Source of the DNA: Tubiluchus corallicola
Lineage: Eukaryota > Animalia > Priapulida
DNA: 40,671 nt
NCBI GenBank assembly: GCA_030141605.1
Contig: JAQGDQ010001444.1
Span: 1 to 40,671, forward strand
Reading direction: 5' to 3'
The notes below the pieces were generated by a model. It was not told the DNA's origin. It made no database searches and saw nothing but the letters and a program-made list of their open reading frames with translations. The position numbers were made by a program, and so were the translations under genes. How positions within the stretch are numbered: the stretch's first letter is position 1; each line of letters opens with the position of its first letter. Positions 3,937 to 40,671 of this stretch are shown one piece after another.

Positions 3937-5132
3937 TTATAAAGCTACAAGTTTATAGACAGAGCATAATGGATGACGTCAGAACAATGGCTTTGCATCA
4001 GCAGTTTTCCAAGCGAAAATTGCCAAAAATAGAACATCTAACTAATTCGTCAGTACTCCTTTTGGTGGACATGTCCTAAAATATAGCCCACACCATCGTG
4101 TAGCCCTGTTTTTCCGCTTTCTAAAGAGCTACATATCTCCTTCCGACAGTCCCACCAGGCGCCGCTAAAACGTTTTTTCCGCTGTTTCGTCAAAATTTCG
4201 AAAAAAATCCGTGTCGGAGAGTTGTGTCCGGGAAAACGCCCGTTGACCTCTCGCAAATTCTAAATACACCTATGACACACACCGATTAACGGGCTATCTA
4301 TCCATAGCCAGCACCACCCATGGCCCGTTCCCGAGTTCCAGATTTCAGACGTATAACTTTTGCAAAAAACGGCCGAAAATGGCCATTTTGGAGGTATGAG
4401 CAACTGCGTGTGCCGTTTTCAAGAATCATCACTTTTCCTGGGAATAATTGATGCAGAAATTGTCCCTTGTCTTCTTTTTTTACATGCACAGCTTCCTTAA
4501 AATTCTTGGTCAATTTTCTGCACAAAAGTCACTTACATTTAACCATCGAACTTGAATCTTTTTTGTGCAATTGAATGCATAAGATTTATACAATCTACAA
4601 CTCAGTTTGCATGCACATCTGCTAGCTTCGAAACAGAGGACATAGGTTATTAACTGCATGTGTGTGAGGGTGTGTGTTTGTAGAGAGGGGGAAGGCGAAC
4701 TGCCAAGGTATCAATATTCTTCATAGATCATTATCTGGCTTTAGCTTTTAGGATCACTATCTGGCATTGGCTTTTAGGAATAAGTTTGCAAACTATAAAT
4801 AATGATCCACCACAGTTGAAATATGACAGGAAGCTGTGCAATCGATTTTATAACTTGGGCATAGAACCATCTTGTTGCAATATCTTTGCTTGCTGGGAAG
4901 AAAAAAAACAACATCAGCACTACTAACTATTTATTCACTAACAAATGCTGTAAGCATATCAATATAAGGACATACAAAGTTCGATAATTGTGATTATACC
5001 AAGTTATTTGGTAGAAAAGTTGGAATAATAGTGTCTCATTATAATGGCATAATGCAGAAGTCAGGTTCATTTTGTCATTGTTACATTTCTCTTGCAGTGT
5101 TTATTTTGGAGCGCATTGTAAAATATATAATA

Positions 5133-6103
5133 CCGTAAAACGGGGTGAGTTCGCCACCCGAGGGTGAGTTCGCCACCCCTTACGTATTGGCCATTGTAGG
5201 TTTGCTGTAACTATTGTTCAGTGTTTAATGAACAGATATCATGATCACCGTCATTATAAACAGTTTGCGACAGTTATCTTCTTTCAATTCGCACTAGAAG
5301 TATTCCATTCTGCGCTACATATTATTTGTCTACTATTTCTTGCTACTTAACATGCCACGCACCTGCACCCCTGTACCGGGTCATAGATACCAAAATTATA
5401 CCCCAGAAGCTCTGGAAGCTGCCCTGCATGCCGTCAAGAATACCAACAGGACAATCAGCCCAGCGGCGAGGCAATTCGGAGTTCCAAGAAAGACCATTTC
5501 TGACAAACTCTCAGGAAGTCATCCGCGGAAGACCGGAGGTCAGCCAGTGTTCTCCGCCGCTGAGGAGCACGAAATCGCCAACACTCCCAGTGGCCGCTGA
5601 GTGGGGGTTCCCAATGACTGCCATCGATCTCCGACTAGTGATTAAGAGTGTTCTTGACGCGAAGGGAATCCAGGAACGACGATTCAAGGCAAACACCCCT
5701 GGAATAGACTTTGTCAAATCATTCGCCCGAAGGAACAATCTGGTTTTCAGAGTGGCTGGCAACGTCAAGGGCGCCCGCAATAAGATCAGTGCACAAGACG
5801 TTCAAGCCTTCCTTGCCAACGTAGAAGTTTCTATTTGAAAACTAAAACTAGACATTTTTTATAATTTTTTCATAGGGTGGCGAACTCACCCCCAACCAGC
5901 CAATCACAATCAGTTAACTTCAGCTGCCTAGAATGGCATTAAACAGTGTTAAATTGTTAGTGGCGAATTCACCCCACGATAGTGTTTTATTCGAAGGGCA
6001 ATATAAAGCTTGAACTAAGAAAATCGGTTGGCTAATTCTCTTGCTATGGCAGGAAACGTAAAAAAATACCCCTAAAAAGTGGCGAACTCACCCCGTTTTA
6101 CGG
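5133..6103 (+). mobile_element. pogo/Tigger-like non-autonomous DNA transposon, copy 2 (971 bp), with the same truncated frameshifted transposase (5352-5838)
   Basis: Same TIRs, TA flanks at 5131-5132 and 6104-6105, same length as copy 1, few substitutions. Confidence 0.92.
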
Positions 6104-6294
6104 TATAACTGATTTACTACAAAATTCTGGAATTAACTAATTTATATGTGCTGTCTGCTGTTTTTTGTCATAACATGATCAGCTACCAGGTTTTAACAGG
6201 CTAAGTCATCATAGCTTTGTTTATAAACTCATGATAATTTAAAGATTGAAATGATGACTTTTTTTACAATATTAGCAAACTTTACTACTTAACT

Positions 6295-7465
6295 CAGAAT
6301 GCAGGCAACCTTGAAATTATTTTTGTTGTTAAATATAACTTAATAGCATCCACTAGCAATATCTTAGCATCTATCAACTCTTCAAACGTCAAATATAATA
6401 AAAATGAAGTGGACAAATACATCAAAGTTTTATGGAGTAGAAAAATACATGTAAAGCAGTTGACCGGTAATCCACGAGAGTTAATTCCTGTATTCACAAC
6501 ACCATTAGATATCACAGTCAGTAAATATGACAGATTTATAGAAACAAGTGCGTTAGCTCTTCTACTTGGAAGAGGTTGCAAATCATTTAAATACAGGATA
6601 GGTATGACTGATTCAAATCTGTGTGATTGCGGTTTGGGCTGTCAAACCCCAGAACATTTTTTATTTTTTATTGTCCGTTACCATTTGTTAGACAAGATAT
6701 AAGAGTAAATCTCGAACGCAGCTTAGAAAATAATGACATTCGAAACATTTACAGAAAGAGAGACACTAATGTAATTAAAATGTATATAGATATTGTAAAA
6801 GAACTAACATAAAATGATCTTATAGTAAATTGATTACACACTGTTTATAAATATTGGATATATATTTAGAAAAGTAAATCCTAATGTAAAAAATTGTCAG
6901 CTTGTTTAGTGAGAAATTTATTTAATGTACATAGTGTATAGACTTACCGTATTTTCCCATGTATAAGAGACCCTTGTGTATAAGAGACCCCTTCAATTTT
7001 TAGGCAAAAATTCTGGAAAAAAGTTTTTTGGTAATGAATAACTTTATTCATCATAGAAATCATTAAATTCCTCATCACTCTCATCAAAAATATCAACTGG
7101 AGTCAGACCTTCAGCAATTCCAGCCAGTTCATCATCAGAGGAGTCACTCTGCTCAAAAATGGCATTGTCCTCTGTGCCGTCCATGGCATTGGAGATGCCA
7201 CACACTTCTTGATAGATTTAATAATGACCTCTGGCTTTACACCATTCCATGCCTTGAGGACCCAGCTGCAGACTTCTCCAAGGGTTGGCTTACTCCCATG
7301 TATAAGAGACCCCCTATTTTTAAAGTGAAAATTCTGAGCAAATAAGGGTGTCTTATACATGGGAAAATACGGTATTTAGCATTTTGTACTTTTGTGCCCT
7401 GCAAATAGAGGGCTTCTTGTATAATTTTCAATAAAGATTTTTAGTTAATTGTTAATAATAATAAT
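6295..7465 (+). mobile_element. non-LTR retrotransposon 3' end (C-terminal Cys/His knuckle, 3' UTR, AATAAA and TAA tail), interrupted by a MITE
   Basis: YRIGMTDSNLCDCGLGCQTPEHF motif; paralogous uninterrupted copy at 27832-28308; 5' boundary approximate. Confidence 0.75.
6947..7372 (-). mobile_element. pogo/Tigger-derived MITE (426 bp) retaining the transposase C-terminus
   Basis: TIRs CCGTATTTTCCCATGTATAAGA; TA TSD at 6945-6946 and 7373-7374, confirmed by the empty site in the paralogous LINE at 28224-28225; remnant EVCSWVLKAWNGVKPEVIIKSIKKC followed by an acidic tail. Confidence 0.9.
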
Positions 7466-8491: not shown

Positions 8492-8895
8492 ATATTCTTT
8501 AAACTTATTATGTTAATTGAAATTTAAAGCTCAAGTTTTGTTTTAAAACGTTTATATTAATACACTAAGCGTAAAAACTAAACTTATACAATTCACGAAC
8601 ATTCACAAATGTTTTCATTAAACAGGCAGTTTGCTCAAACAAACCAAGATGTTTTCAAAATTTGTTCCGGTTTTGCAGAGGGTCCAGAAAATACTGTAGC
8701 GGAAAATAGTGTGAGAAGATTAGCATTCATTCCAAGCATGCATTCGTTCTCAGAATGTTCTATTCTTTAGTTTTTTGTTCATTTTTTCGAAAATGTGATA
8801 CATTAGCGATTGGTTTAGTAGTTACAATACATTTTGCAATTGCCACTGTTGTGAAAAAATGAAATATTAATGAACATGTTGAAATTATATAACAA

Positions 8896-9967
8896 CTACA
8901 AAATTAAGCACATCCATTCTGATGTTTTATTCCTGTCAGGGTGGCCACTCCTTTCATGGAAAGTATTTCTCCTTGAATGCATGTGTGCATTATTGCAAAA
9001 GGCTGAGTTGTAATGGCTTTCTTCTTCCACCGCGAAGTTGTAACTTCTAATGTGCATATGTGGATGTGCTCCCTGCTTTAAGCCATATCCATTGTTGGGG
9101 GGAGCACATGTATAAAGTGGTGGTTTTGGACGGCTTTCACATTGTCTTTGAAAGACATCATTTCTAGAGTACATGCGTGGGTTTGCTTCTCCGATCTCGA
9201 CAAATTCATTGCTTATACGAGTAGCTAGAATAGGTTGGGTATCAACTCTGCTAAATTCAACACTGACAGTTTTACATGGGACTGATTTTTGGTGACTTGG
9301 TGGTTTTGTTTCCAGGGAGACATTCCTAGTATGCACGAAGGCATCTGCTGCCTCAAATCTACCAAAACCTATGTTATTGTCACCTATGTAGAAACCAAAT
9401 GTAACGTGATCCCATCTACAGTATTTCTCATCAAGTATTCCACATTTTTTGTCCACAGAAACATTATATTTTGAGAGCATAGAGTCTGGCTTCCATATCC
9501 ATGTTTCGGCAGTTTCTGCACTGAGATAAACCATGCTGTTTTTTTTTACCTTTGGATAATTGTCAAATTCTTTAATACCTTGGGGGTGTATGACTATGAC
9601 ATGCATCACCTGTTGCTTATATAGAAATGCTCCCAACACCTTCAGGCTTGGCAGCTTACCCCCGCAGCATGCCATACCATATTTGGTTATTAAATCGGAT
9701 AGTTTGTAGCTGATTACATAATTTCCATATCTTGAACTGTGACGTCTAAATACAGGTGAGCAGCAATAGTCATTTATTTTTGAGTCTGTTAATTTGTAGG
9801 TGATGTCTATGCTCCACCAAGAAAGATTTCCAAAGTTGCGTTTCCGTTTTCCTATGAATTTTCCTTCCTTGGTTATCTTTAGCAAGGCATGCAGATTTGT
9901 ATCATGTCTCAAATTTGTAAATTTAAATTCTAGTGAGTGATGTATAGCTGGGTATTTAATATTCCAT
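8896..9967 (-). CDS. putative endogenous viral ORF2 (unknown, possibly matrix-like); natural start appears shifted by one base
   Basis: Intronless open frame of more than 338 codons directly downstream of the N-like ORF and a gene-junction-like motif; contains PPLY (PPxY); no family recognised by eye. Confidence 0.55.
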
Positions 9968-9969
9968 TC

Positions 9970-9990
9970 ATGTGTTTTTTTTTCTAAAAT
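9970..9990 (-). promoter_or_regulatory. putative mononegavirus gene-end/polyadenylation plus gene-start junction
   Basis: Sense strand ATTTTAGAAAAAAAAACACAT between the two ORFs; similar ATTTTCGAAAAAATGAACA at about 8776-8794 after ORF2. Confidence 0.55.
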
Positions 9991-10033
9991 TAAGTTGAAG
10001 TTGCAATCACAGAAAAATACTGGTATTCTTTAT

Positions 10034-11293
10034 TTATAGGTCATACTCATCTTCTGATTTTTGATCAGGTACTTCTCTTGTCCTTATCCCTCTTCCTCGT
10101 CTTAAGGTGCTGTACGTCTTGTCGATGCTTTTCTCTAATCCCATATCTTCAAGGGATGCCGCGGCCTTATCTGGGCCTTCCAAAAAGGCTTCCATGCCAT
10201 CTCTGCGAAGATTTTTGCCTACATATCGAGCAAACTTTTTTATTCGATCTGACACATCCGGTGCTTTGTAGTTCCAGATATAATTCCTTTCATCGACTAA
10301 AACATCTGGGTCAGAAATAATGTGCATTAATACTGTTGTTAAAACTTTGTTTCTTGCAGGACTAAGAGTTAAGAAGGCATTTTTGCAGAAGATTTTTGCG
10401 TAAATATAATCCACCTTCTCAGAGTCGACATATGTTTCCAAAAAATCTTTAAGACTTTCTAAATCTCCGTCGTCTAAATGTCCATCGGTCCAGAAGGATG
10501 TTATTTTTCTCACAAGCGTATTAGTGTCGAAGCCAGTCACATCGCAGGCTTCAGCTAGGAATTTTGGAAGAGCTAAAGAGGCCCATGCCAGATGTCTCAT
10601 TACTGAAAAGACAATTAAAGTATAGAGACCAGCTATTCTTTCTTGTTTTTTTTCTTGAACAATTTGAAGCCCATAGACTATGAGTGCTTGAGCTAGGTTG
10701 TCAGGTTCTGAAAAAGCAGAATGCATTGACAGAACTTCATCTTCTGTGAGAGTTAATGTTAAAATTTGGTAGGTAGGAAGGATATTTTTCATGGAACTCT
10801 GAATACCATGGGAGAATATTTTTCTCAGAACTTTTGGTGGATTGCCGGCACATCTGGTGAGGACCATAATAAGAAATCCAAGAGAGTCTAAGAATGATTG
10901 ATGAGTCTGAAAGCATTCTGTTCCTTTAAAGTAGTGCTCTATTTTTCTCCAAGAATCTGAGTGTAATGTTTGATCAGAGGCCCCAGTTAATCGACCATAC
11001 TGAGTTTTGAGCTCAGCAATTCTTAAGGTTATGCGCTCCGTGTCAAATTTAGCATCTGGAATCCATTCTTCTAGCTGTCTCCTAATGGAGGTGTTGACAA
11101 AGCTCCATTCTCGGCCTACTACCCAGGCACCCAACACGGCTCCTGCGTTTTGGGCGTGCTCTCTGATGAGCGTCATTTTTAGAGCTGTTTCTAGCCAATC
11201 ATAAGATCCTTCTATTGAGGAGAACCTGTTTGGGATTTCGTTGCTCGACCACTTGACATTCCCTACATCAAAAATTACATCAAATTCCGCCAT
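10034..11293 (-). CDS. endogenous viral element: Mononegavirales (rhabdovirus-like) nucleoprotein-like ORF, 419 aa
   Basis: Intact intronless ORF from ATG GCG (MAEFDVIFDVGNVKWS..); N-typical size; RHLAWASLALPK and YIYAKIFCKNAFLTLSPARN recall the conserved C-lobe motifs of cyto/nucleo/varicosa-type rhabdoviral N; charged C-terminal tail. Confidence 0.72.
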   Translation of the reverse strand: MAEFDVIFDVGNVKWSSNEIPNRFSSIEGSYDWLETALKMTLIREHAQNAGAVLGAWVVGREWSFVNTSIRRQLEEWIPDAKFDTERITLRIAELKTQYGRLTGASDQTLHSDSWRKIEHYFKGTECFQTHQSFLDSLGFLIMVLTRCAGNPPKVLRKIFSHGIQSSMKNILPTYQILTLTLTEDEVLSMHSAFSEPDNLAQALIVYGLQIVQEKKQERIAGLYTLIVFSVMRHLAWASLALPKFLAEACDVTGFDTNTLVRKITSFWTDGHLDDGDLESLKDFLETYVDSEKVDYIYAKIFCKNAFLTLSPARNKVLTTVLMHIISDPDVLVDERNYIWNYKAPDVSDRIKKFARYVGKNLRRDGMEAFLEGPDKAAASLEDMGLEKSIDKTYSTLRRGRGIRTREVPDQKSEDEYDL

Positions 11294-11486
11294 TAGTGGA
11301 ACGAATCTCTTCAACAGTCAAGACACGTCTGGACTTTTCAACTTCAAATTTGTTGGTGTTGTTTTTGGTCAAATAGAATCCTTTATTCTAACAATGTTGC
11401 AACATCAATCCACTTGTCCCATCTCAAATGCATTTTAGGATAGAAGAGTTCAGTTGCCCCTCTACGCATTGACCCGCAGCACTTTT

Positions 11487-11567
11487 CTGTAACAAAAATT
11501 AAGTGTTAGTTAACAAGCGAAACCAGTTTTTTTGCACACGTCACGTATATACATATAATTTTCTTAC
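11487..11567 (-). other. putative 81-nt spliceosomal intron upstream of the N-like ORF
   Basis: AAG|GTAAGA donor, AACTAAC branch-point-like motif, TTTTTGTTACAG acceptor. Confidence 0.6.
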
Positions 11568-14429
11568 CTTGTCCTGTTATTTAATACATAGATCGCAGAA
11601 TGTTAATCAACTAGTGGGGTCCACCTCGCAATGGCCATTCAGGCAGTCTGTTTTGGTTGTAAATCTGAAACTTGCGCAAGTTGTGCTTCAGATTTAACTC
11701 GTCGGAAAAGATGTTCTTACGCCTCCTCGAGTGAACCAGTAAACTCCCGTGGGGGAGGCCAACATAAGATGCCACCATGTTTTTGGTGGCCTGTTTGTAC
11801 GCCTCCAATGTGAGCTGACTATCTTCAGTGACAGTATCAGTTAATAGTTGGCACTAATTATGATGAAAATACCTGGATTTTATTTGGAAACGACGAGGTA
11901 GCGCGAGATTCTTCGGCGTCGACTTACGGTCTGTTTAAGGACGAAGAAAGTCGAACATCGATAACACTGAATTATCTTGTGCAGGTCAGCAACCACTGTC
12001 CTGAGTGTGGGAAGGTGATTCCCGACTGGAAGTCGACAAAATTGCATGTGAAAGAAAGCCACGAATTGGTCGTCGATAGGCTAAAGTTTCCATTGCCGGT
12101 ACCTGGAATCTCCCAAGTTCAGCGGTATTTATGTTAATGTACAGCAGAAGTATGTGTCCGTGAGCAGTGAAGAGAGTATAGAATGGTGAAGCATTGTGCT
12201 TGGGGTACATATGATGTGGATGTTCGGTACAACAAAAAACACTTAGACAAGTGTCACCAATTGATAGAAGCATGCAGGAGGGCACGTGAACCAATTCAAA
12301 ATTAATAAAAATCCCGCTGTCTGTTTAGAGATTCCTAACATTTTATTCATACTGCTGGCTACATGTAGAAATGTGACATGCTATATAAAGACTTAACACA
12401 CTGGAACAAGATACTCGTTACTGTACATCTTGACTGTAATTATTAATAGTCACTAAGTTTAGTTTTCTTCTAACTTACTGCTTTTTTTTATTTAATTCAT
12501 TCAATTTTCATGTTTATTGCAGGAATTTAAATCACTATATGCAGCTACCAAAAATAACTTGTATTAGATAGTAGTAAATAATTCTACTTAAACAATCTAC
12601 TTTATTCAAACATATTTGAAATGCTACTGATATCTCACAAAATTACTTATTGCAGGAAATAAAAGACACGTTATTTACTGGTCGTTTACTAGCTGATATT
12701 TTAAACATACTTTTTCTACTGGCAATAAATTAAACTGCTACATGCTACTACCAAACCAAACAAATACCAGTACTGTATCATATATGTGATAATAATAAAA
12801 CGGTAGTGATAAATGAGCTACGTAAACGATTTAGACAATGGAAACAAATCTCAAATGGTTGCTAATATTTCAAAAAAATAAATTACTAAAGCAAAGAATT
12901 AGTGGTTATAATAGACAACCATTATTTACTTGTCATTTTTCTGCTATTTTTCAAATTTTGCTCTTTTCTACTGGTTTTTAAACAAAAGACCTTGGCAGAT
13001 GACAACACAGTCAAATAGTGAATGTAGAAGTTTGAAGATTAGCAACTTGAAATAAATTTTGTGACATGAAACTTTTGACTTAAAACTGTTGTAAGTCCTG
13101 ACCAGTAAAGGCCATTTATTCCCTAGCCTCTATTCAATGATTTTCAGTCTCAGTCATTATTATCACTCTGTTCTGTGTGCTCAGTTCCTGGTTGTGTATA
13201 AATTCCTATCACAATAGTTCCTAAAATGTGGTCCTGTGTTGGACCGTCCCACTGGAGTCGGTTCATGCAATATGAATGAAATATAGGCGTAGATCTTACG
13301 TAAAAAAACTTACCCGAGTGTAATCAATTTCTCAACAATATTTATAAAGTATTTAATTTATAATGCGCTAGTAATTTATCAGCGTAATTGCTTACATAAA
13401 GTAAAGTACCACAAAGTCGAAATTTTGAATATACACTTGTTTCACCATTTAACTTCCTCTATCTTTAACGCCCCCCTATGTGTGCAAAATCGAAACTGAA
13501 ACTTTTGTTGCTTCCAAGAAGGCGCTAGTAAAACAAAGTCGAAGCGTGTTGTTTACATATAATAGCTGTAAACTAATCTTTCATTAGTGAATGAGTCACT
13601 GGTAACTTTTTCGTAAAAATATGCTTTGGTAATGGTAGTAAAAGTCATGAATGCTTTAAATATTTTATTTTGAAATGTTTTATAAGTAAAAACTGCGATG
13701 TAGTTTAGTCCTAGTTGCAGGTGCTAATTTAATTAAAGGGGGAAAAAGGGCAGTTTTAAAGTATATCCCAAAAACTTTAAATGCAAAGTTATATTTCTTA
13801 GCATTGCATATTGTGTTGACTTAATAAGTGAAAAAAAGTAAATTCCTAAAATATTTGCACCACGTGGCAGCACTACATCGCTATGCTTTAAAGTTATAAT
13901 ATTGGTTTACGGATCTCTCGACTTATCTCAAGTGTCGAAGTGTTAAACTTCGAGACTCAACTGTAACAATACCATAGATATGGTTTGTGTAGATCAAAGA
14001 TCTTGGTGATTGCTTAGGAGTGTTCTGCATTCTAGACTGTCATGTTGCTCTGATCTTCTTTGTTTAAGTTCATAATTAGTTTAATAAATACTACTTTATT
14101 ATGCACGCATTTGTCTGGTTGCTAATATTATTGTAGCGTGTAACATCAACTACTAGGGTCTGGGGGAGTGGTGTAAGCTCCTGCAGCAAGGCCGAAATTC
14201 TAGAAAGTAGATTAATTATTTCACAAATTGTTTCATTCTGTTTTATTGCATAGTAATGCATACACCCACTAAATTTATGGGAAATTATGAAAATATTTAT
14301 AACCTATTCGAGATTTCAGCAATAAGAGCCCACGGTAATAATGATAATTATCATGCACAGACTATTTTATAAAAAAATTATAGTGACTATAGTGGTTTTG
14401 CAAGTTTTGCGGAAAATGCTGAAAATATT

Positions 14430-15150
14430 TAACCTATTTTATACTTGCAATTTACGTCTATAGACTCTGTACATCTTTGGTTTGCTGAACGTATGTTTAT
14501 AATCTGAGCTGCTAGTAAGATTAAGGCAGGTAGACAAAAATTCAAAGCTTCAATAACTAACCTGAGAAAAACATTAAAATTCCCAATCATTGAAGCACAC
14601 AAAGAATATTTTATTCTGCTTTTTATATTTAAATACATTAACAACATCAGCAAACCATTCCAGAATAACAGATTTACCTTTTTTCCAAATCCCATCGTTA
14701 ATTCCAGAACAAGCAATCTAAAACAAATTAAGACAAATACCCACTATGGAACGAATTCTGTAATCAATCAAGCAATTCTACTTTGGAATTCTCTACCATT
14801 ACAGGTTAAACAAATAAAGTCGAAATCAGCATTTAAAACAAAATTAAAATCACTAATATTAACCAGATATGAAATACCATCACACCAGTACGACAACATA
14901 CACACTAATTCAGAATTCATATATCCACGGCCATATTAATTAAATCATAAGTTTTTCATTTTTTGTGCATAGTTGTAAATATGTTTGATTTTATTCGTCG
15001 TTACTTTCCATTACTGCACAGTAGTTTAGATTGCGCTGACGCATTTGCCTTCAACAGTGTAAGTTTTTATTAACTAACACTGATTTATCATCTCTGTAAA
15101 GTTTTTATCAGTGATTATCAATGTATTTTAATGGCAAATAAACATTATTA
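14430..15150 (+). mobile_element. CR1/L2-group LINE 3' fragment
   Basis: Frame ending at 14939 reads ..NTHYGTNSVINQAILLWNSLPLQVKQIKSKSAFKTKLK..YPRPY*, the typical LWNSLP/FKxKLK C-terminus; AATAAA and TTA tail near 15140. Confidence 0.8.
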
Positions 15151-19058: not shown

Positions 19059-19579
19059 TTATTTCACTCCAGCAACACATATACAATACATCAACATACA
19101 ATATTATTGAAACAAAAAGAAACAGTATAGGTAAAAAAAACGTTGATGAAGTCAAATTAACCAAATAAAAGAGTTGCTGTATGCCAAGAAGCAAGTATAA
19201 TGGCAACATTCTACTGTGAGCAGACGGGAGGGGGGGGGGGCACAATAAAAGAAGTTTTGGCATTCGGGTCAGTTTTCTTGCATTCTGTAGATCCGTTCTC
19301 CCTCATCTGATTATTGTGGTGCTCGTTTGTTCTTGTTACAGAACAAGTAGTGCTGCACATTTCTTATGCACGAGGTTTAGGATGCTTATTAAATGTACGA
19401 ATAATTCAACAATCACGCGTCGTATCCAAGTATACAACTCTAGAAACAGAGCTAACGGCTAAGCAACAGCAGGTGACGTCATAACCCGGTAACACATTTA
19501 ATATTCACACATTCCCGTGGCCTTATTTCCTTTACTGAATTGATTTTTCTCGATATTGCCATGAATAATGTAAATATGT

Positions 19580-20010
19580 CAAACTTTACGAATACGTATC
19601 CTTAGTTTTTTCTACACAGTTTAGCTGTTTTACAAGCTTTGATTCCACAATCAGTGACTGTTTTAATGCTAGATATATCAACAATATTAATTTTCGTTTC
19701 AAAAACAATAAGCTCCCACTTCTTAATAACCCCAGTATGAATAACAGAACACTAAATTTAAGAAACATTAGAACGAACAACCAATATGGAAAGAATTCCA
19801 TTACTAAGCAAGCAATACAACTTTGGAATTCATTACTGACATCACTAAAACACAGCAGCTCTTTATCAATATTCAAGTCTAAATTAAAAAAACATTTAAT
19901 GACTCGTTTTGAATATACGACATACGAACACAATGATACTTACTCAAATCATAATTTAATTTTTCCTAGACCTTACTAAACTAGTATATTTTGTTTTTGT
20001 TATTTTGTAC
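19580..20010 (+). mobile_element. CR1/L2-group LINE 3' fragment, diverged relative of 14430-15150
   Basis: RTNNQYGKNSITKQAIQLWNSLLTSLKHSSSLSIFKSKLKK..FPRPY* aligns by eye with the other copy. Confidence 0.8.
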
Positions 20011-23122: not shown

Positions 23123-23314
23123 TTATATGGTTGTTGTCATCTGTTGCTTCTTGTTGAAGTGTTGAAGTTGGCCACTTTCCTTCCACAGCAGCCACTCATC
23201 CAGAGTTTCTGGAAGCACTTTGCCTTTGGTTTCGGGAAAAAACAAAATGATGATTGCGGCTCCTATTCCCATACTTCCAAACAGTGTTGGTTGTACCCAA
23301 GCGTGTTCTCTTTG
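23123..23314 (-). CDS. SLC22-like last coding exon
   Basis: TTGCAG acceptor; QREHAWVQPTLFG..FFPETKGKVLPET..TTTI*. Confidence 0.9.
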   Translation of the reverse strand, partial: QREHAWVQPTLFGSMGIGAAIIILFFPETKGKVLPETLDEWLLWKESGQLQHFNKKQQMTTTI

Positions 23315-26300
23315 CTGCAAAAATACAAAATGGTTGATTATTTTCATACATTTTTATGTCAGTACATGTATTAGAATCTTTTCGAGTCAGATAATTGGCT
23401 ATGCCACTACTTAACAAAAATTACGGCCATATCACGTTGAAAACACCCGTTCTCGTCTGATCACCGAAGTTAAGCAACGTAGAGCCTGGTTAGGGCTTGG
23501 AAAGGTGACCGCCTAGGAATACCAGGTGCTGTAGGCTTGCGGGATGCCCACACTGTATCTCGACACTAGGCGGAGGAGCTGCACAAGCAGCCAACGGCTA
23601 GAGGGCGGAGGAGGTCAAGTGACCCATGTGTAGAGGAGTAAACCTTCCAAATCAGGAGTGGAGCCCCGAAGGCGGACCAGTGCAGCAAGCTCACTGAGTC
23701 CGGCAGCTCCTGCAGCTAACCTGGTGCCAAACGTATCGCTCTGCTTTCCTTTGGACTACACCAGGGAGGAAGAGAGGGGGTTCCTGTTGTCTGGGCAACT
23801 CAGGATCTCCATACACCTTACGCAGGCGTGCGCCCTGGAGAGGCCAGTGGTTCAAGGGTCGGACTGCTCAGCCACAGTCGACGCTGCAGCTCCATCAATG
23901 TGATCAATAACTGACTCTCTTGGCGCACACTCCATTGTCTTCTGAGACAGAAGGATGCCAACATAACAACATTATATTTAATAAAATCAACAAATTAACG
24001 TGCCAAGCTGCACATCTAAGTAAAGATTTCCAAACACAAACCATAAAACTGCAATTACAATATGCATGTTTTCAGACTAACATACGTTAAGGTGTATCAG
24101 GAAGCAAAAACGTACCCAGGTAATAGTTAACGGAGCTATCATGCCTCCAACACGTGATGTACTAGAGCATAAGCCTAGGCCTCCATTTCTGAAATTTGTA
24201 AAAAAAGATTGAGTATTTAGCAACTCCTATAGAAAAAATAACCAACCAGTGAATATAAGGTTTTCTGCATGGCCCTAGTCAATATAGTTACTTCTTGGGA
24301 ATCAGCTGCCTTGAGTCCTGAGAGATGCTGATTTGGTATTTATTAAACGTTAGACTTATGGGTAGGTGAAGAAACTCTTAAGCATTTATCCGCACTAGAT
24401 GCCAACTCATCTAGTATTGATGTAGACCTTTAGGAAATTGATGTTTGGCTTGTTCTGACATTTACCGTAACGCCTGGTTTTTGATTGCTCATGCAAGCGA
24501 TTTTATTCGTCACTGCCTACAATTTCACAGGATGAAATACTGTTCACGATCTGCCTTAGGTTCGCTGCTCACTGTTGTGTTTTGTTTCTCTCGGAAGGCT
24601 CGTAGAGAAAGCTAGAAAACACGCCGTTAAATGTTATTACTTTATTGAGCGAGAATTCTTACAAAACAAAGATGAAGGACGTTGAAACGATTGCTATAAA
24701 CGTGAAAATGTGGAAAACGTTTAAGTATATCTGAAAATGTAAGTATTACGTCCGTGAGATCTGCGTGCTCTGTGTGCGATGTGCTCTGGTGTCGGCTTCG
24801 CTGTACATGGCGCGCTGTAGAAACTTCCCGAACAAATGTTCGAGAACAATCCAGAGGTAAGGCGGTTATTCCGACGGAACATTCTACGATGTTCTATGCA
24901 ATTCTACTTGACGTCAGCGATCTCCACAACACTCACAAGCAGCCAAAGATGAGCTGTAGCTACAATTATTTCCACCTCGAAATGATCCAATTCCGACTTT
25001 CATATTTCGCGCACAGTACAATTGCCCGTGTCATCTCAGTTCTGCACCTAGTTTCTGAAGGTAATGGAATTCCATCAACTCCACGTCTATATCAACAGCT
25101 TAAACGTGAGAACTCAATACTTGTGTTTTTCAATGTTCTGTAATAGCTCTTGTATTCTGTTAATCATCGGTGATTTACCAGTCTCTGTACTCTTAAGCTT
25201 GTTATCTGTGCTCATGGAGCTACTCGCTCTTATATCAAGTGCTCCATTAGAAATTATATACCCGATCTTGCAAGAGGTAGGTCTACTTAAGTACCTCTAT
25301 AACTAAAAAGTTTAGTTATAACTTTAACTTTAGTTATAATGTTCTAACTACAACTTTTGCTATAGAGGTGCTTGGCCTACTGTAGACATCTGTATCTGAA
25401 TCATTGCTTCCGTCTGTTGCTTTCACCCACGTGACACATTCTGAATCGTTCCTTCCACCTGTTGCTTTCACCCACGTAACACATTCTGAATCGTTCCTTC
25501 CGTCTGTTGCTTTCACCCACGTGACACATTCTGAATCGTTCCTTCCGTCTGTGGCTTTCACCCACGTAACACATTCTGAATCGTTCCTTCCGTCTGTTGG
25601 TTTCACCCACGTGACACATTCTGAATCGTTCCTTCTGTCTGTTGGTTTCACCCACGTGACACATTCTCAATCGTTCCTTCCGTCTGTTGCTTTCACCCAC
25701 ATGACACATTGCAAAATCTTGTTGCCAATCTGATTATCTGTGACATGACGTCTACCTCGCAATTCATTGCTCATCAAAAATCTGTTGCTATGCCAATCCT
25801 GTTATTCCTACTTTTGTGGATGGTATCTTCAAAATCTCTCCCCATTGGTGCGTAAATGCCGACAATTTTCTACGAGTTCTCGTGCTGCTTCTGTCTTCCC
25901 TATTCCCAGATTTTTCCTTGGGCATCATGTCTGTTATTGAAAAAGGGGTAAAGTATCTCTACGGAACATGTTTTAATATTAAAATTTGAACAACTTGCGT
26001 GCTTCTATGGTTCAGCCACATATCAACCATTTTTCTACCCTTATTTATTTGGAAAGTGGTGCTGACAAGCCACTTGTGAGGCAGTGTGTTGTTGTTTTTA
26101 CTGTATTAACTGTTGTCTGTCTTATCTGTCTGCAGAGCAGTTTTTTATTTTGAATTCTGCGTGCCCAATGTCTATAATAGGCGTAGTTGGCCAACGATCT
26201 TTGTACACCTGTAAGATGAGTTGATCTACAACTATACATGGTCCTCACATTTTTGCGGAAATTGTTTTCTAATCAGTACATGCAACATACCTAACGACTG

Positions 26301-26812
26301 TAGGCACCAGCTCAACCGTGTACAGGTAAACGGAGGCAAAGGCGGCAGAAGTGGCAGCCTTGCCTATCATCACTAATGTGGTCTCGACCCATCTGATGTC
26401 TGCACCGCTGGCTAATAACAAAACAACATCTGTTGAAAATTTGCGATACTATATGCTAACTGTAAAAAGAAATTTAAGTCATCTAGCAGTGATCACATTA
26501 CTTTATAAAATGCATTTTGCTGGCTGACGTTGGCCATTAAAATGAAAATTGGAACCAAAAGGTGCTAGAGAAGAGATACCAGATAGAGATGAATAAGAAT
26601 AAGAATTGATCATAAGCAGAACAAGTGGCTAACCTGTTTCTCAGTCATCTTTCTTTCCCTCTGCACAGTTGTCAATTAAAACTGAGTAGACCCAGGAAGG
26701 CAGCCAGAAATTATATATATATATATATATGTAGAAATTTCTGGCTGGCTTCCTGGGTCTACTCAATGTTCATCATTGATTGCTATTTATATAAGATTAA
26801 TCGCCATTTAGC

Positions 26813-26847
<35 letters not shown>

Positions 26848-29800
26848 TATATGTATGTATGTGTGTGTGTGCGTGCGTGCGTGCGTGCGTGCGTGCATGC
26901 ATGCATGCATGTATGTATGTATGTATGTATGTATGTATGTATGTATGTATGTATGTATACAGCATGAAAAATCAACATAACTGTAAACCAAATAACCACG
27001 TAAATGGAATTCGAACCCACTATCCCCGGATTGGGAACCGAGTGACATACTACGCTAGATGCGATGGAGGGGAGTTTCGAAAATTTGGGGATGGCCAACC
27101 TGCAGTCACAGGAGAAATTTCTGCACTGCAAAATCTGCTTTACTTTAATCTTCAAAAATCGAATCCCAACTCGACAAATAGATTGCAGTTTTAAATGAAA
27201 GGAGAAACTAAACGGCATCAGTTGGTCTTAAATTAGTTCTTTCAAATGGAACATGTTAAACTACAATGTTTACATTGATTACAAAACTAGCTACTAATAC
27301 ACTACTAGTTGTAATTTAGTGCAGTTTGTGTTAAAATATGCGCTGAGTGTAGTTAGTATACACCTGTATAGTGTAGCATAATTACCAAAAGTTTTTTAAA
27401 TAACCTTGTCATTCACCTGTTTTATCTGGAATTAGAAGATTGGAAAAGAGAGCTAAACCAGCTATGAAATGAAATGCACAGATGGATTTTATTCTACCAA
27501 ACCTGAATAAGAAGGAAACCAGGGTGTCATTATTTAATATTTAATTTAACTGTAAGTTCAACTTTTTATTTCACACTCAAGATGTATAGTATAATACATA
27601 CAATCATACACAAATACAATTACAAACATACACATAAAACGACTAGACCTTCTATAAACTAATTCCTTGCAACACAAATAAATTAAAATCACGATTACGT
27701 ATATTAGACTGATCGCCATTTGGCAGATATACTTGACGTGTACTTACTATCACTGTTACATAGATGATTCGCAATGGTATTACTACTCTTTATTATGCTT
27801 GTATCGCTAAACATACATTTTTTTCTAATAAACGTTGGCTCTTCTACTTGGAAGAGGTTGCAAATCATTTGATTGCAGGATATGTATAACTGATTCAGAT
27901 CTGTGTGTTTGCGGTTTGGGCAGTCAAACCCCAGAACATTTAATTTTTCATTGTCCGTTACCATTTGTTAGACAAGATACAAGAGTGAATCTCGAACGCA
28001 GCTTAGAAAATAATGACCTTCGAAACATTTACAGAAAGAGAGACACTAATGTAATTAAAATGTATATAGATATTGTAAAAGAACTAACCCAAAATGATCT
28101 TATAGTAAATTGATTATACATTGATTATAAATATTGGATATATATTTAGAATAAGTAAATCGTAATGCAAAATTGTCAGCTTGTTTAGTAAGAAATTTAT
28201 TTATTGTACATAGTGTACAGACTTATTTAACATTTTTGTACTTTTGTGCCCTGTAAATAGAGAGCTTATTGTATAATTTTCAATAAAGATTTTTAATAAT
28301 AATAATAATTTCTAATAAAAAGTATTTTAAATGATAGAATACACAAAGTTGTCTTGTGCAAAAGTCGAATGGTGTTCCGAAAAATTTACGCAGTAATATA
28401 TTGTTTGCTGAATTTAGTTTTTTTATATTATAAAGATTGTCGTTCCTTCACTATTTACTGTAGTGCGAATAGTTTCTTATAGACAGAGAGAAAACAGTCA
28501 TTTATCTATTCATTCTACTGCCTAAGAATTGACATTAACTTCCCGTTTGATGATTAATTAAGATTTATAATTAGTACCTGATTGAAAACCCATCAACATT
28601 AAAGTGCAGTAAGAACGTGAATGATTAAGTTTGTTCTAAGACAGAACCATTCCGAGATTAAAATTAATTACAAAAATTAGTCTGATTGGTTAGTAAGTAC
28701 TTTAGCGAATGTAATTTAGCACATGAAAATGTTGGAACGGTTGCTCAGCTTTTATGAATGAATTGATCTGCCATGATGTATTGGTCATGGGTTGGATGAT
28801 CAAAAGGTCCTTGGTTCAAATCTACTGCACTCAAATTCAGTTTTTCATATTTTTTCCCGCCCAAACTTAACAGTTATTGGTTTGTTCCACCACTAGGCAG
28901 TAAGTTTGTAATAGTAATAAATTTATTAAGCCACTAATATATCATTTCAGGTTCTACATTAATTCAAAAATAATTTAATTACTTAGTAATATCTCTAATG
29001 AGAGCAAACTAACATTTATAAATAAATGTATTGGGTTGGTCTCAAGGTGATCATACGCGCATGAGAATCGGATTTTCTCAGCTAAACTATGACCTTTGAC
29101 CTTTTCTCTAAAGGCTGTAAAGATAATAACGGTCATCCAATATTGCCGAATTGTAACTGTGGATTTCGATTTGAGTCTGTTGAACACTTTTTGTTGGACT
29201 GCTCATTGTATCCACAAACTAGGGTTGTTATGTTTGATAAATTAAATGAAATACTTCTGCCCGAAAACCTTAATATAGCTGCCTTAGGAAATAATGATCT
29301 GTTGAAGTTCTTATTATTCGGAAAAGATGAATTTAACTATGTTGCTAACTGTAAAATATTCCAATGTATACATGACTTTATATTACGTACTAAACGTTTC
29401 CAGTAGTTTCTATCTGATATGAAATGCATCAGTATTAAATATTCGTACATTAATATTTTCTAACCATCATTTTCTACTAATGTCTAAGGTAATCTTGTAG
29501 TAAAACTTGTCAGCTTGTGTATTTATAGTCTATTCTTACTGTAAATGTTCTTGTAAATAGTGTATAAAGTCTGTTGTGGTGAGAATCCTAAATCATGCTG
29601 TTCAAACTGTCTGATCCAATCCTAAATAAATTATTTTTGCCACATATTACCTTTCAGTGCACACCTTTGCTGCAAGATATGCAGGTAACTCTACTGCTCC
29701 CACGAGGAAGGCGTTCAAATAGAGGTTGCCAGACAGTTCCCCAACACCAAGCGACACAGCATAGTAAACCATGGAATCCGTCATCCTTTAACGAAAAATG

Positions 29801-32211
29801 TGTGATATATTTTTAAAAATCTGACGCTAGCTCTCGGTTTTGATTCTAGAATTTAAGTTTCTCCTACACAAAGTAAGATTAAATGTTTTTTTTTTAAAAA
29901 AAACAGATCGCTTTAAATTTTCACTTGTTCCCACTTCAGACAAAGCATTCAATGGTAGCTAAACTTTAAACAGTTTCTTTTTGTGTTTTGAAAGTTTTAT
30001 TTACATAGTGCCATTTAGATTTAGATTTACAGTTGCGAATTTGTTGCTCTAACCGTTTTTTTACTACGGCCAAATCACGTTGAAAACACCGGTTCTCGTC
30101 TGATCACCGAAGTTAAGCAGTGTAGAGCCTGGTTATGGCTTGGAAGGGTGACCGCCTAGAAATACCAGGTGCTGTAGGCTTTTTGGATGCCCACACTGTA
30201 TCTCGACACTAGGCGGAGGAGCTGCACAAGCAGCCAACGGCTAGAGGGCGGAGGAGGTCAAGTGACCCATGTGTAGAGGAGTAAACCTTCCAAATCAGGA
30301 GTGGAGCCCCGAAGGCGGACCAGTGCAGCATGCTCACTGACTCCGGCAGCTCCTGCAGCCAACTTGGTGCCAAACGTATCGCCCGCTTTCCTTTGGACTA
30401 CACCAGGGAGGAAGAGAGGGGGTTCCGGCGGTCTGGGAAACTCAGGATCTCCATACACCTTGCCCAGGCGTGCGCCCTGGAGACGTTCAAGGATCGGACT
30501 CTCTTGGCGCACATTCCATTTTTACTAATGGAACCGCTTTTACCAACAACCGCTTTTTACTAATCTGTGCAAAGCTGAAACGACAAATTTCATTTATATC
30601 ATGTGTAGTATATATGACCAATAAAGATCTGTATGTCTATGTCTAGATAAAGAAAGCCGAAGTTTGATTAGATCATCTTTCTTGGCGTGTTTGTCTCTGT
30701 AGTTAAAATACGGTTAATTTCCGTACTCACTTCGAAGTTTCACTAATAGTTACACTTGCTGACTACACATTATTGCTGGGTTCACATTTTGTACCAGTAT
30801 TAGGGAAAAGTAGAAACTTATCCTGTTTTAACATCCATGGGCTTACCAAATAAACAGCATAAGTGTCACACATGGGCTTACCAAATAAACAGCATAAGTG
30901 TCACACATGGGCTTACCAAATAAACAGCATAAGTGTCACACATGGGCTTACCAAATAAACAGCATAAGTGTCACACATGGGCTTACTAAATAAACAGCAT
31001 AAGTGTCACACATGGGCTTACCAAATAAACAGCATAAGTGTAACACATGGGCTTACCAAATAAACAGCATAAGTGTCACACATGGGCTTACCAAATAAAC
31101 AGCATAAGTGTCACACATGGGCTTACCAAATAAACAGCATAAGTGTCACACATGGGCTTACCAAATAAACAGCATAAGTGTCACACATGGGCTTACCAAA
31201 TAAACAGCATAAGTGTCACACATGGGCTTACCAAATAAACAGCATAAGTGTCACACATGGGCTTACCAAATAAACAGCATAAGTGTCACACATGGGCTTA
31301 CCAAATAAACAGCATAAGTGTCACACATGGGCTTACCAAATAAACAGCATAAGTGTCACACATGGGCTTACCAAATAAACACCATAAGTGTCACACATGG
31401 GCTTACCAAATAAACAGCGTAAGTGTCACACATGGGCTTACCAAATAAACAGCATAAGTGTTAAAAACACTCGCAATTTGGGCGTCTTGTATATGTCCAG
31501 TAGAGTAAATTTTTTTCCGTTTTCCTTATAGTAGGAAACTGCTGATTGCTTTTGTATCATAGAAAGACAATGTTCGTCTAAATGTACTTTGTTCATTTTA
31601 CTTGCTTTCTGAAGAACTTCCTCTGCCTTGTCTGTGCGATTCTTGGCTGCCAGCCAATGTACAGATTCGGGCAATATCCTGTGAAACACAAAAATATTCA
31701 GGCATATATATCAAGCGCAAAAATGTTATTAATTTTAACCCTTTCATACCCGTTGTATCCCGTTGGATACGAGAATATTTTCTGCCTTTAAAATTAATAA
31801 AATTTTAAAACTGACAGTTATTTGATCTGTTAATAGTTATTTTGATTTAAGCCAATAACAATAGACCAAAAATGGTGATAAAATGGCAAACTAGAAAATC
31901 TACATTGCATAAAAAACTGTGCAAGGTACAGTACTTTAGAGACGACTTTGTACAGATCAGTATAGCATGCATACTAAATGTCTTAAATACTTTAAAAAAT
32001 TATCAGCAGTTGCAAAATGAAGCATATTTTATGCTTCCATTGAATCCGAATCTATCCCGTGGGATACAGGCTATATTTAGCACGCGGGCACAGGTAGAAA
32101 AAATAATTATTATGTATAAACAAGATGGACATACTTAACAAAAGTACCAAGCCTATTATTCTTATTAAAAAAATAATTTGGGACTGAAAAGGTTAAGAAA
32201 TAAATAGAGAC

Positions 32212-32242
<31 letters not shown>

Positions 32243-35200
32243 GTCCTGGTAAGTCCTGTCCTGGCACTGGATAATTAACCGAATATGCCTGTACAGTATT
32301 ATTTAAATTAAATACACATAGCTAAGTGGACAGTGAAATGGATACAAAACACCAGTTTAACGTGTTGACCAAAAGTTTCTTTATTCTGAAAGACAATTAT
32401 TAACATTTAGTTTAATTTGCATCGAGTAGAAGAAAATTAGTTGCATGATTAAATGTACTGCTATAACTAAGTACTGATATAAAAAATATGTAAACTATAT
32501 TGAAATTAATTAATAACAACTTGCGTTGTTAGAGCCTTTAGCAGTTACAAGACAAGTAGTCTTAAGAACAATAATGTCACAACAATAAATTCGTAAGAAA
32601 TTCACAGTCATAATGCTCATCACAGACAGAAAAATAGAGCAATGGCGGAGAGAACTAAAAGACGGGTAAAATGTCAAACAACTACTATAGCTATAGCTCA
32701 CGAAAGGCCAAAATGCTAATGTATTCAACGATATTAGGTGCTTCAATTTTAAAAGAGTGACTACTGTAAAAGGTAAAAAGCCTACTAAATCAACAAACAG
32801 GTGGCAGCACCGTGGCAGTAATTGAAAACTAAATTAAAACCAAAAAAGGGTCTATGCACCCACTACAGACAGTTCCATCAATTTCCTACGAGCCATTCAT
32901 TTGGGCAATAGATAGCTTACAAACATAACACGTTATTTCGTTTTTACATACCAATAGTATGAAAAGGTGAGTAGAAGTGGAACTGTGATAATAATTTGAA
33001 TTTTTCTCCAATCATCCACTGCCAAGGCGATTAAAGGCGTCGTCATAATGCCTACACTCCATAACATTTGATCGCATGTGCCCACCCAAGCTCTTGAATC
33101 TGGTGGAACAGATTCACACAGTAGACAAAACATGGACAAATAACCTCCCTATAGAAAATTAATTATTTTTACATATCATTTTTGCCATTTGCATTACGAG
33201 GTATTTTATTACTGTTGTGAAAAAAATTTGCTACTTTAAAAGTGAAAAACTAGACTTACTGGCTTTTTACTCAAGAATTTAGAACTAGAGCCTGGTTAGT
33301 ACTTGGATGGGTTCCCGCCTAGGAATACCAGGTGCTGTAGGCTTGCGGGATGCCCACACTGTATCTCGACACTAGGCGAAGGAGCTGCACAAGCAGCCAA
33401 TGGCTAGAGTGCGGAGGAGGTCAAGTGACCCAACGGCCATGTGTAGAGGAGTAAACCTTCCAAATCAGGAGTAGAGACCCGAAGGCGGACCAGTGCAGCA
33501 TGCTCACTGACTCCGGCAGCTCCTGCAGCCAACCTGGTGCCAAACGTATCGCTCCACTTTCCTTTGGACTACACCAGGGAGGAAGAGAGGGGGTTCCTGC
33601 TGTATGGGCAACTCAAGATCTCCATACACCCTGCCCAGGCGTGTGCCCTGGAGAGGCCAGTGGTTCAAGGGTCGGACTGCTCAGCCACAGTCGACGCTGC
33701 AGCTCCATCAATGTGATCAATAACTGACTCTCTTGACGCACACTCCATTGTCTTCCGAGACAGAAGGATGCCAACAACAACAACTCAAGAATTTGCATAA
33801 TATACCACTAACACATATAATAAACACTCATCCATTGAATGGAATTGTTCTACATCTTCTTAATGTTACTTAATACATATTCGTTCTTTATAGTTGCGCC
33901 TAAATTGTCTGACGGCTTTGAATTGCCGTTTTTCGTACAGCTGTCACCTATCTAGTTACTGAGTGCAGCCTGGATTTGAACCAGGGTCATTCTGCTTTAA
34001 ACTGCAGGCGTTGTAGACCAGTAGGCTACCAATAATAACGGGAAGAGCAAAGTTCATCTCTTACAGATGGCCATCCAAATTCAGCATTTCCGTTACTAGA
34101 TCGCTTGCATTGTCGTTGTAAAAGTGCGCCCACCCCCCAACTTTGAGCCAGTGGTCCGGAGGAGGGCTGTAAGTTTCCTCATCGTGGCCCAGAGACTCAT
34201 TTTCCTGCAATTAAGCATTTTGGGGGTCTAAAGGGAATCTAAATTAGGATGGGTTTTTTCAAATGTGAAAAAATTGCTCAAATTTGGTGGTTATAAAATG
34301 TATTTTTAATAAACTGCTTCATATAATAGAATATAATTAATGTTATTTATACCATGGTGCAAGCATATACTATAGACTGTGTACTATATACTATATACAT
34401 TCAGAGCATTATGTGCTTCAAAATCTGAACCAAAGAATGACCGCGCACATACAGCGGCAGAAATAAAATTGAAGCAGTGCAAATACATGTAACTAAACAA
34501 TTTACGTTTTCTAGACATTTCTAGACGCTTTGCTTCGCAGTCTTTACTTGTTCAATTTTCTTCCCTCCTTTATTTCTGTTGTGTTTTGTTTCTCTCGGAA
34601 GGCTCGTAGAGAAAACCAGAAAACACACCGTTAAACATTACTACTTTATTTAGCGAAAATTCTACAACACAAAAAGATGAAGGAACAAGAAATGATTATA
34701 CTAAACGTGAAAATCTGGAAAACTTTTAAGTAAGTATGCGTAAGTAAAAGTCCGTGTTAGATCTGCGTGCTCTATGTGCGATGTGCGATGTGCGATCCGG
34801 TGTCGGCAGCCTTATATAGCGCACTGCAGAAACTTCTCGAACAAATGTTCGAAAACAATCCAGAGGGTAAGCCGGTCATTCCGACGGAACATTCTACGAT
34901 GTTCTATGCAATTCTAATTGATGCCAACGATCTTCACAACAATTTCACAGGACAAATTTTTGACGCCCTTACAAGAAATTCTTACACGGGGGGGGGGGCA
35001 CTCGATGTTTCCCTTCTGTCCACCAGTCATAACGCCAATGACAGCTAGCAAAAGCATGATTCTAACTAGTTAGATTATTTCTGTATGAATCAATGAATCA
35101 AAAAGATAAAATAATGAACTATTGGACTGCATTGATCACAGAGGAATACGGTGGTCTAGTGGCTTAAGGCGTTTGCCTTGTAAGCAGAAGACCCCTGTTC

Positions 35201-38200: not shown

Positions 38201-39648
38201 AGTAAATCGGTTCCCACTTCCCAATGAACAGTGAATCACTCACAAATTAGTTTTTTAAGTAATGCATTATATGCAGTATAGCACTGTATTAATGAATTGG
38301 TTTCTCTCAAGAAACATTGTTTATTTTAAGAATGCATTGTTTTCTCTAACAGTTACAATGGCATGTAAAGTTTGCAAAATATTAGTGAACATATAACGTT
38401 GTTATTTTAACTTAAGAGCAATTATTAAATAGAAATTAAAGAAGATTAAATTTAACATCCTTAAACTTTAAAACCTATCTACATTTGAGATACCAATGTC
38501 ACATTTGACTTGACATGTGTCTACATTTGACTTACCAAAAGCACTCAAGATTTGTTTAAAACCATTGTTAACACATTTGAACTACCTAAGTCTACATTTG
38601 AGTTACCAAGACACATTTGAGTTACCTAAGTCTACATTTGACTTAACGTACGTCTACATTTGACTTGTAAAACCTATATTACTATTACTGTTACTGTTAC
38701 TGTTACTGTTACTGTTACTGTTACTGTTACTGTTACTGTTACTGTTACTGTTACTGTTACTGTTACTGTTACTGTTACTTTTACTGTTACTGTTACTGTT
38801 ACTGTTACTGTTACTGTTACTGTTACTGTTACTGTTACTGTTACTGTTACTGTTACTGTTACTGTTACTGTTACTATTACTATTACTATTACTATTACTA
38901 TTACTATTACTATTACTATTACTATTACTATTACTATTACTATTACTATTACTATTACTATTACTATTACTATTACTATTACTATTACTATTACTATTAC
39001 TATTACTATTACTATTACTATTACTATTACTATTACTAATACTAATACTAATACTATTACTATTACTATTACTATTACTATTACTATTGCTATTGCTATT
39101 GCTATTACTATTACTATTACTATTACTATTACTATTACTATTATGTTGCTATGCTATATTGTTATTGCTATTGCTATTGCTATTGTTATTGTTATTGTTA
39201 TTGCTATTGTTATTGTTATTGTTATTGCTATTGCTATTACTATTGCTATTGCTATTGCTATTACTATTGCTATTGCTATTACTATTGCTATTACTATTGT
39301 TACTGCTATTGCTATTACTATTGTTATTGTTATTGCTATTGCTATTGCTATTACTATTGCTATTGCTATTGCTATTACTATTGCTATTGCTATTGCTATT
39401 GCTATTACTATTGCTATTGCTATTGCTATTGCTATTGCTATTGCTATTGCTATTGCTATTGCTATTGCTATTGCTATTGCTATTGCTATTGCTATTGCTA
39501 TTGCTATTGCTATTGCTATTGCTTTTACTATCACTATCACTATCACTAATACTAATACTAATACTAATACTAATACTAATCTTATTAGTATTACTATTAT
39601 TGTTACTATTACTATTACTATTACTATTACTATTACTATTACTATTAC

Positions 39649-39718
<70 letters not shown>

Positions 39719-40668: not shown

Positions 40669-40671
40669 CTG

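Follow-up and report, generated by a model that had tools for sequence, protein, structure and literature searches.

The window analysed here, that is the whole 40,671-nt stretch of contig JAQGDQ010001444.1 from the priapulid Tubiluchus corallicola, contains an intact 419-aa ORF, referred to below as N, that is probably of viral origin and lies within a 1418-nt insert. The two parts of what we interpret as one host exon flank the insert, and an intron-like element and a multi-copy repeat lie above it (Table 1). No Rfam match at gathering level was obtained over 8500-13500. Elsewhere in the window we identified a multi-exon SLC22/sugar-transporter gene on the minus strand (23126-40671, with exons near 40671-40438, 31678-31442, 29785-29651, ∼26410-26291 and 23314-23126), one exon of which matches Pfam Sugar_tr. 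The coding part of this SLC22-type gene ends ∼11.5 kb above the insertion, and the position of its last coding exon, which ends near 23126, rules out a location of N within one of its introns. A compound trinucleotide/hexanucleotide microsatellite of ∼1.8 kb (38642-40486) occupies the intron right after a transporter exon. A 976-nt element occurs in two copies (4-979 and 5130-6105) that are 98.9% identical and in opposite orientation and that carry terminal inverted repeats of 27 nt together with an HTH frame of Psq type; judged by these features it is a recently active pogo-like transposon derivative. Another element, of 430 nt with 31-nt terminal inverted repeats (6945-7374), sits inside a repeat whose copy at 27833-28309 is uninterrupted. 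Its depth is very high in X1, a run that behaves as genomic DNA, with cover over repeats and intergenic stretches, and that may represent the source sample; X1 joints skip the element. At 35324-38685, inverted ends of ∼560 nt surround a 60-nt tandem array and, at 37161-38235, a DDE_3 transposase of Tc1/IS630 type that is split. Two plus-strand fragments (14508-14939 and 19569-19979) are similar to each other and presumably resemble CR1/L2-type LINE 3' ends.

For the long ORF downstream of N, the sole match among 417 candidates was P0008, a 337-aa protein from a 1488-nt contig. Residues 49-284 of P0008 match 9975-9277 with 74% identity, and residues 23-49 match 11475-11395, previously reported as an upstream ORF, with 70% identity (19/27 residues; E 6e-13 in pairwise comparison), a match that tblastn also returned. 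The two halves adjoin on P0008 with zero residues lost, residue 49 being common to both as a duplicated codon. Since both halves are continuous on P0008, the N unit interrupts a single exon, and the ORF downstream of it cannot count as a second viral gene. A viral G at 8896-9975 was likewise ruled out, as this frame continues the upstream host exon. The earlier note had raised as a caveat that the EVE might have landed in a decayed host gene, and the match of both flanks to one protein, end to end, bears this out; its impression that the upstream ORF is faintly Tudor-knot-like did not hold, as no Pfam family was found for that frame or for P0008.

Table 1. Features at and around the insertion, in window coordinates
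Position	Strand	Feature	Basis or remark
8896..9975	minus	3' part of interrupted host exon, frame still open	P0008 match at 9975-9277
9973..9976	minus	Right AACA: target-site duplicate	
9977..9985	minus	AG+A7, viral stop/polyadenylation-like signal	
9977..11394	minus	Insert, 1418 nt: ATG-free 101-nt leader, N ORF, ∼50-nt 3' UTR, AG+A7 end	
10034..11293	minus	Intact 419-aa ORF, likely rhabdovirus-like nucleoprotein	Pfam PF03216
11395..11398	minus	Left AACA: target-site duplicate and/or rhabdovirus-type gene-start motif	
11395..11486	minus	5' part of interrupted host exon, with all four upstream ATGs	P0008 match at 11475-11395
11487..11567	minus	81-nt GT-AG intron-like element	Likely intron of interrupted host gene
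11568..11582	minus	15 nt between repeat end and donor, probable remnant of upstream host exon	Sequence
11583..12400	.	Dispersed multi-copy repeat (the 'GC-elevated block'), holds the 11872 donor	Sharp end 11583, far end approximate

The host gene is represented in our comparisons by this one protein, no relatives having been found among 344 shorter candidates, in viral or metagenome contigs, or in PDB, NCBIfam and Pfam. Together, P0008 and the window's 8896-9975 make up a family of cysteine-rich proteins that has one member in the databases. The Atlas rows for P0008 included a DarT/PARP cluster and a mollusc Tox-ART-HYD1 cluster (at 0.81), all scores being below 0.9, and the structure model (pLDDT 32) was too poor to use. 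The host protein has an H-x-T motif that we take to resemble the ADP-ribosyltransferase superfamily. These are weak leads that the interrupted gene may be ADP-ribosyltransferase-like: its likeness to such proteins consists in the Atlas leads, whereas P0008 differs from them in having no Pfam, NCBIfam or PDB match. Between the Q at the acceptor and residue 23, P0008 has 57 nt of codons and the window 11 nt, a net, frame-shifting loss of 46 nt; one X1 contig over the acceptor has a joint at 11480/11483, in the region of this loss, the letters between being not known. When the host remnant in the window was compared with two X1 contigs, 9 of the 10 SNPs were nonsynonymous (P 0.22 under neutrality, 5e-4 at dN/dS 0.2), which fits a pseudogene or diversifying selection. 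Based on the net 46-nt deletion, the repeat whose end lies 15 nt above the donor and the excess of nonsynonymous SNPs, we read this copy of the host gene as broken and probably drifting as a pseudogene. The open frame in its 3' remnant still spans ∼357 codons, which points to youth of the insertion.

The earlier note had described an 81-nt intron on the same strand as N, and its motifs and coordinates (11567-11487, minus) all check out. The donor (AAG/GTAAGA) agrees with the consensus at 8 of 9 positions, a score equalled by 30 of 4482 GT sites, and is followed by an AACTAAC branch-like site and a T-rich tract ending in TTACAG; in sequence terms, a U2-type donor, branch site, pyrimidine tract and YAG are thus all present. 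Both ends are similar to splice sites of the window's transporter gene, and the acceptor lies 193 nt before the N ATG (11293). A bacterial-style ORF caller places the start of the host frame at a TTG within the acceptor tract, the first start codon after the tract's stop, and the frame then reads MLQK; the N-terminus of P0008 is MLQR. Since the start of P0008 seems to coincide with this acceptor, the acceptor is likely older than the insertion. The simplest reading of this agreement, judged at the protein level and on three residues, is that P0008 was likely called on genomic DNA with the same acceptor. The 81-nt element is likely a pre-existing intron of the now-broken host gene, not a capture device for N. 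A second intron candidate, with its donor CAG/GTATTT at 11872, had also been proposed; the motif exists but lacks an acceptor, as all seven downstream YAGs are preceded by at most 6 pyrimidines in 11 positions, and the donor itself lies within the multi-copy repeat.

The repeat nature of this block is evident from X1, where summed contig depth is 24-228 per bin over the repeat and 0-16 over the N unit. At least five X1 contigs part from the window at 11583 and continue in dissimilar flanks (agreement 0.55), consistent with many differing copies, and these exits rule out the repeat as coding exon 1 of the host gene. Because just 15 nt separate the repeat from the donor, the host gene has probably been cut off from, or has lost, its upstream exon and promoter. 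The 60-nt end of the repeat (11583-11644) is common to many X1 contigs with different interiors. A sub-threshold C2H2-finger-like motif (E 0.013) is present at 11832-12137 on the plus strand, and on the minus strand the frame with fewest stops has 6 in 272 codons. A 12/13 direct repeat at 11577/12488 may be a target duplication or chance.

The X1 contigs also bear on the age of the insertion. One contig spans the 3' junction (9571-10230) with 5 SNPs and a 12-nt indel relative to the window, and since it differs from the window, at least two versions have the same insertion point. Neither a contig spanning the 5' junction nor an empty-site joint was present among the X1 contigs listed, and X2 gave just two 35-nt matches to the window. 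Pooled over pieces that may be different haplotypes, differences from X1 numbered 2 in 841 nt of the viral part versus 26 in 1046 nt of the host part; within one X1 contig the counts were 0 in 254 versus 6 in 406 (P 0.054). The N ORF showed one difference, nonsynonymous, from X1 (one other haplotype or copy) over the ∼700 nt covered, a comparison that leaves out part of N at ∼10670-11050. By our computation, an unselected N ORF would stay open with a probability of 0.39 at 0.7% divergence and 0.15 at 1.4%. Lower divergence of N would be predicted by a young insert in recombining flanks, and also by selection on N. We consider that the insertion is probably young and that N would owe its intact state to little elapsed time, not to selection.

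Taken as a whole, we think it probable that a 1.42-kb unit with an intact, likely rhabdovirus-type N splits one exon of a host gene in the sense orientation, and that the 81-nt element is an older intron of that gene. As N is sense-oriented under a good acceptor, read-through expression would be possible, but we regard it as unlikely. It would require a surviving or repeat-supplied promoter, a transcript spliced from 11568 to 11486, and re-initiation past the upstream ORFs, with N protein or small RNA being made and kept. The orientation of N, an AATAAA that overlaps the N stop at 10034, the intact state of N and its closeness to X1 relative to the flank would all suit such co-option, as would the precedent of elephant EBLNs with a captured host exon 1 and donor. 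The four upstream ATGs listed in the earlier note were verified (11469, 11433, 11422 and 11405, the first opening an ORF of 28 aa), and all four ORFs end at least 90 nt 5' of the N ATG, a point in favour of this reading. The same four ATGs, one of them in a strong context, nevertheless stand between the acceptor and N, and the host frame, closed by a stop at 11385-11383 (90 nt 5' of the N start), gives neither an in-frame fusion nor a clean leader, so that N would need re-initiation. Co-option is further disfavoured by the repeat 15 nt above the donor, with the original promoter probably separated or lost, and by the nature of one of the two X1 differences listed for the viral part, which is in the ORF and nonsynonymous. 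Moreover, intactness is expected without selection, and where flanks recombine a recent insert should show lower diversity anyway. We consider equally unlikely a natural gene trap at an early age, in which the N mRNA of an undescribed, deeply divergent rhabdovirus-like lineage would have inherited the acceptor of a possibly ADP-ribosyltransferase-like gene and would be expressed, as protein through re-initiation or as antiviral small RNA, in a first step of domestication in a non-mammalian animal. If N were expressed, the locus would be a rare case of early-stage EVE co-option that could be genotyped in a population.

The sole family match of the 419-aa ORF was to Pfam PF03216 (Rhabdo_ncap_2; E 2.2e-5, ∼190 residues), and with 24.5 bits it missed the gathering cut-off of 25. 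No relatives of the ORF were found among 4603 candidates, in viral or metagenome contigs, in PDB or in the Atlas, and its 1 match in a representative library looked spurious (repeat). Its single-sequence structure model (pLDDT 36) was unusable, and a fold search with this model, which returned nothing at E ≤0.001, is meaningless. The insert itself has unusually sharp breakpoints. AACA is present on both sides (p ∼0.006), of which CA is an unambiguous duplication (p ∼0.06 for CA alone). UUGU, which is AACA in mRNA sense, is described in PMC4334499 as the core rhabdovirus start motif, and the stop signal of the N gene of IHNV is given in PMC2820013 as UCUUUUUUU, with UTRs of 112 and 80 nt. Both ends of the insert agree with rhabdovirus motifs, AACA being start-like and AG+A7 end-like, although the left AACA may equally be host. 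The A-run at the 3' end has 7 A, or 9 including two A of the right AACA, and is not longer than a templated viral A7. The leader and trailer of the N unit measure 105 nt and ∼50 nt, compared with the 112 and 80 nt of IHNV N, and the four upstream ATGs are all in host-derived sequence, with 0 in the 101-nt leader (P 0.13, weak). With its start-like and stop-like ends, leader and trailer, the insert looks like exactly one mRNA; it forms one transcription unit with no adjoining viral gene and contains no L gene, and it lies between halves of one non-viral-looking exon. Drawing on the one sub-threshold Pfam match and these end signals for the viral identity of N, we regard the protein as very probably rhabdovirus-like, without assigning it as a family member. 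The insert might instead be the processed copy of some unknown mRNA from the cell or from a mobile element, a reading that is helped by the Pfam score under the cut-off and by the lack of a viral homologue in the searches made (the Atlas being uninformative), but to which we give little credence. The only Pfam match is to a viral family, rhabdovirus motifs mark both ends, and a cellular parent should have given additional similar X1 contigs, whereas depth over the ORF is low, which is weak evidence.

Still less credible is that the 81-nt element arose by chance, as a motif in the AT-rich DNA that borders a repeat. Under loose criteria such triples are indeed common, with 12 in the window and one in 522 of 5000 shuffles. 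Under strict criteria the element is the sole combination of donor, branch site, tract and YAG on both strands of 1-38500, and when the 1107 nt above N were shuffled a triple arose in 2 of 5000 cases, a chance estimate that is optimistic in that the criteria were fixed post hoc with the site already known. The element also lies immediately above the homologue of a coding exon and appears to agree with the start of P0008. Finally, we regard it as most improbable that the locus holds two viral genes, N followed by G or M, along with an intron of viral origin, or that a live virus was joined to it as a chimera of the assembly. In favour of this, the A-run with AACAC right after it looks like the boundary between two viral genes, and some nuclear mononegaviruses splice. 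Against it, the second ORF carries on the host exon from above the insert, 92 nt separate the intron from the insert, and the 3' junction is spanned by an X1 contig that has SNPs and a 12-nt indel of its own (X1 may be the source sample).

The favoured reading, a viral unit inserted into a host exon, would imply that reverse transcription copied one viral N mRNA from gene start to gene end and that the copy entered the germ line. Priming at the A tail by LINE-type machinery would be the somewhat better explanation; PMC2987831 describes full-length EVEs of mammals in which a poly-A tail together with a target-site duplication marks viral mRNA copied by LINEs. Capture at a DNA break via AACA microhomology would be only slightly less probable, given that the duplication (2-4 nt) and the tail (7-9 A) are both short for LINE priming. 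With its base-precise ends and readable empty-site structure, the locus would be a record of the whole N mRNA, from start motif to stop motif, of a virus without a relative in the searched collections. It also serves as a warning that splice signals beside an EVE can be remnants of a gene that the EVE has broken.

We found no published report of this locus in a search conducted mainly by titles and abstracts, with most subscription journals and supplements outside its reach. Compared with the N of IHNV as described in PMC2820013, the unit is similar in size (419 vs 391 aa), in UTR lengths and in its AG+A7 end, but it starts with AACA, the general core of animal rhabdoviruses, where novirhabdoviruses have GCAC; it also fails to match the upstream portion of their stop motif, and the Pfam score is under the cut-off. 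The locus is likely a retrocopied viral N mRNA, of a kind already known from mammalian EVEs. It shares with the bornavirus EBLN and bat filovirus NP retrocopies of PMC2987831 a whole N unit, a 3' A-run, a duplicated target and the absence of a neighbouring viral gene, and it differs from them in being rhabdovirus-like and inside a coding exon, with a duplication of 2-4 nt and a tail of 7-9 A; in its insect EVEs the same source saw neither tails nor duplications. This suggests that the mRNA retrocopying known for bornavirus and filovirus elements of mammals has likewise fixed a rhabdovirus-like gene in this animal. The Afrotherian EBLNs, which captured exon 1 of TMEM106B with its donor (PMC4982594), are the nearest parallel to the host capture proposed in the earlier note and are alike in having an N ORF under a host splice site in the sense orientation. 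For those elements the same source describes in-frame use, mRNA, protein and promoter activity, and more than 83 million years of purifying selection, whereas the present locus is read from sequence, its host frame ends before N, four upstream ATGs intervene, the upstream exon is cut by a repeat, and the insertion carries signs of youth.
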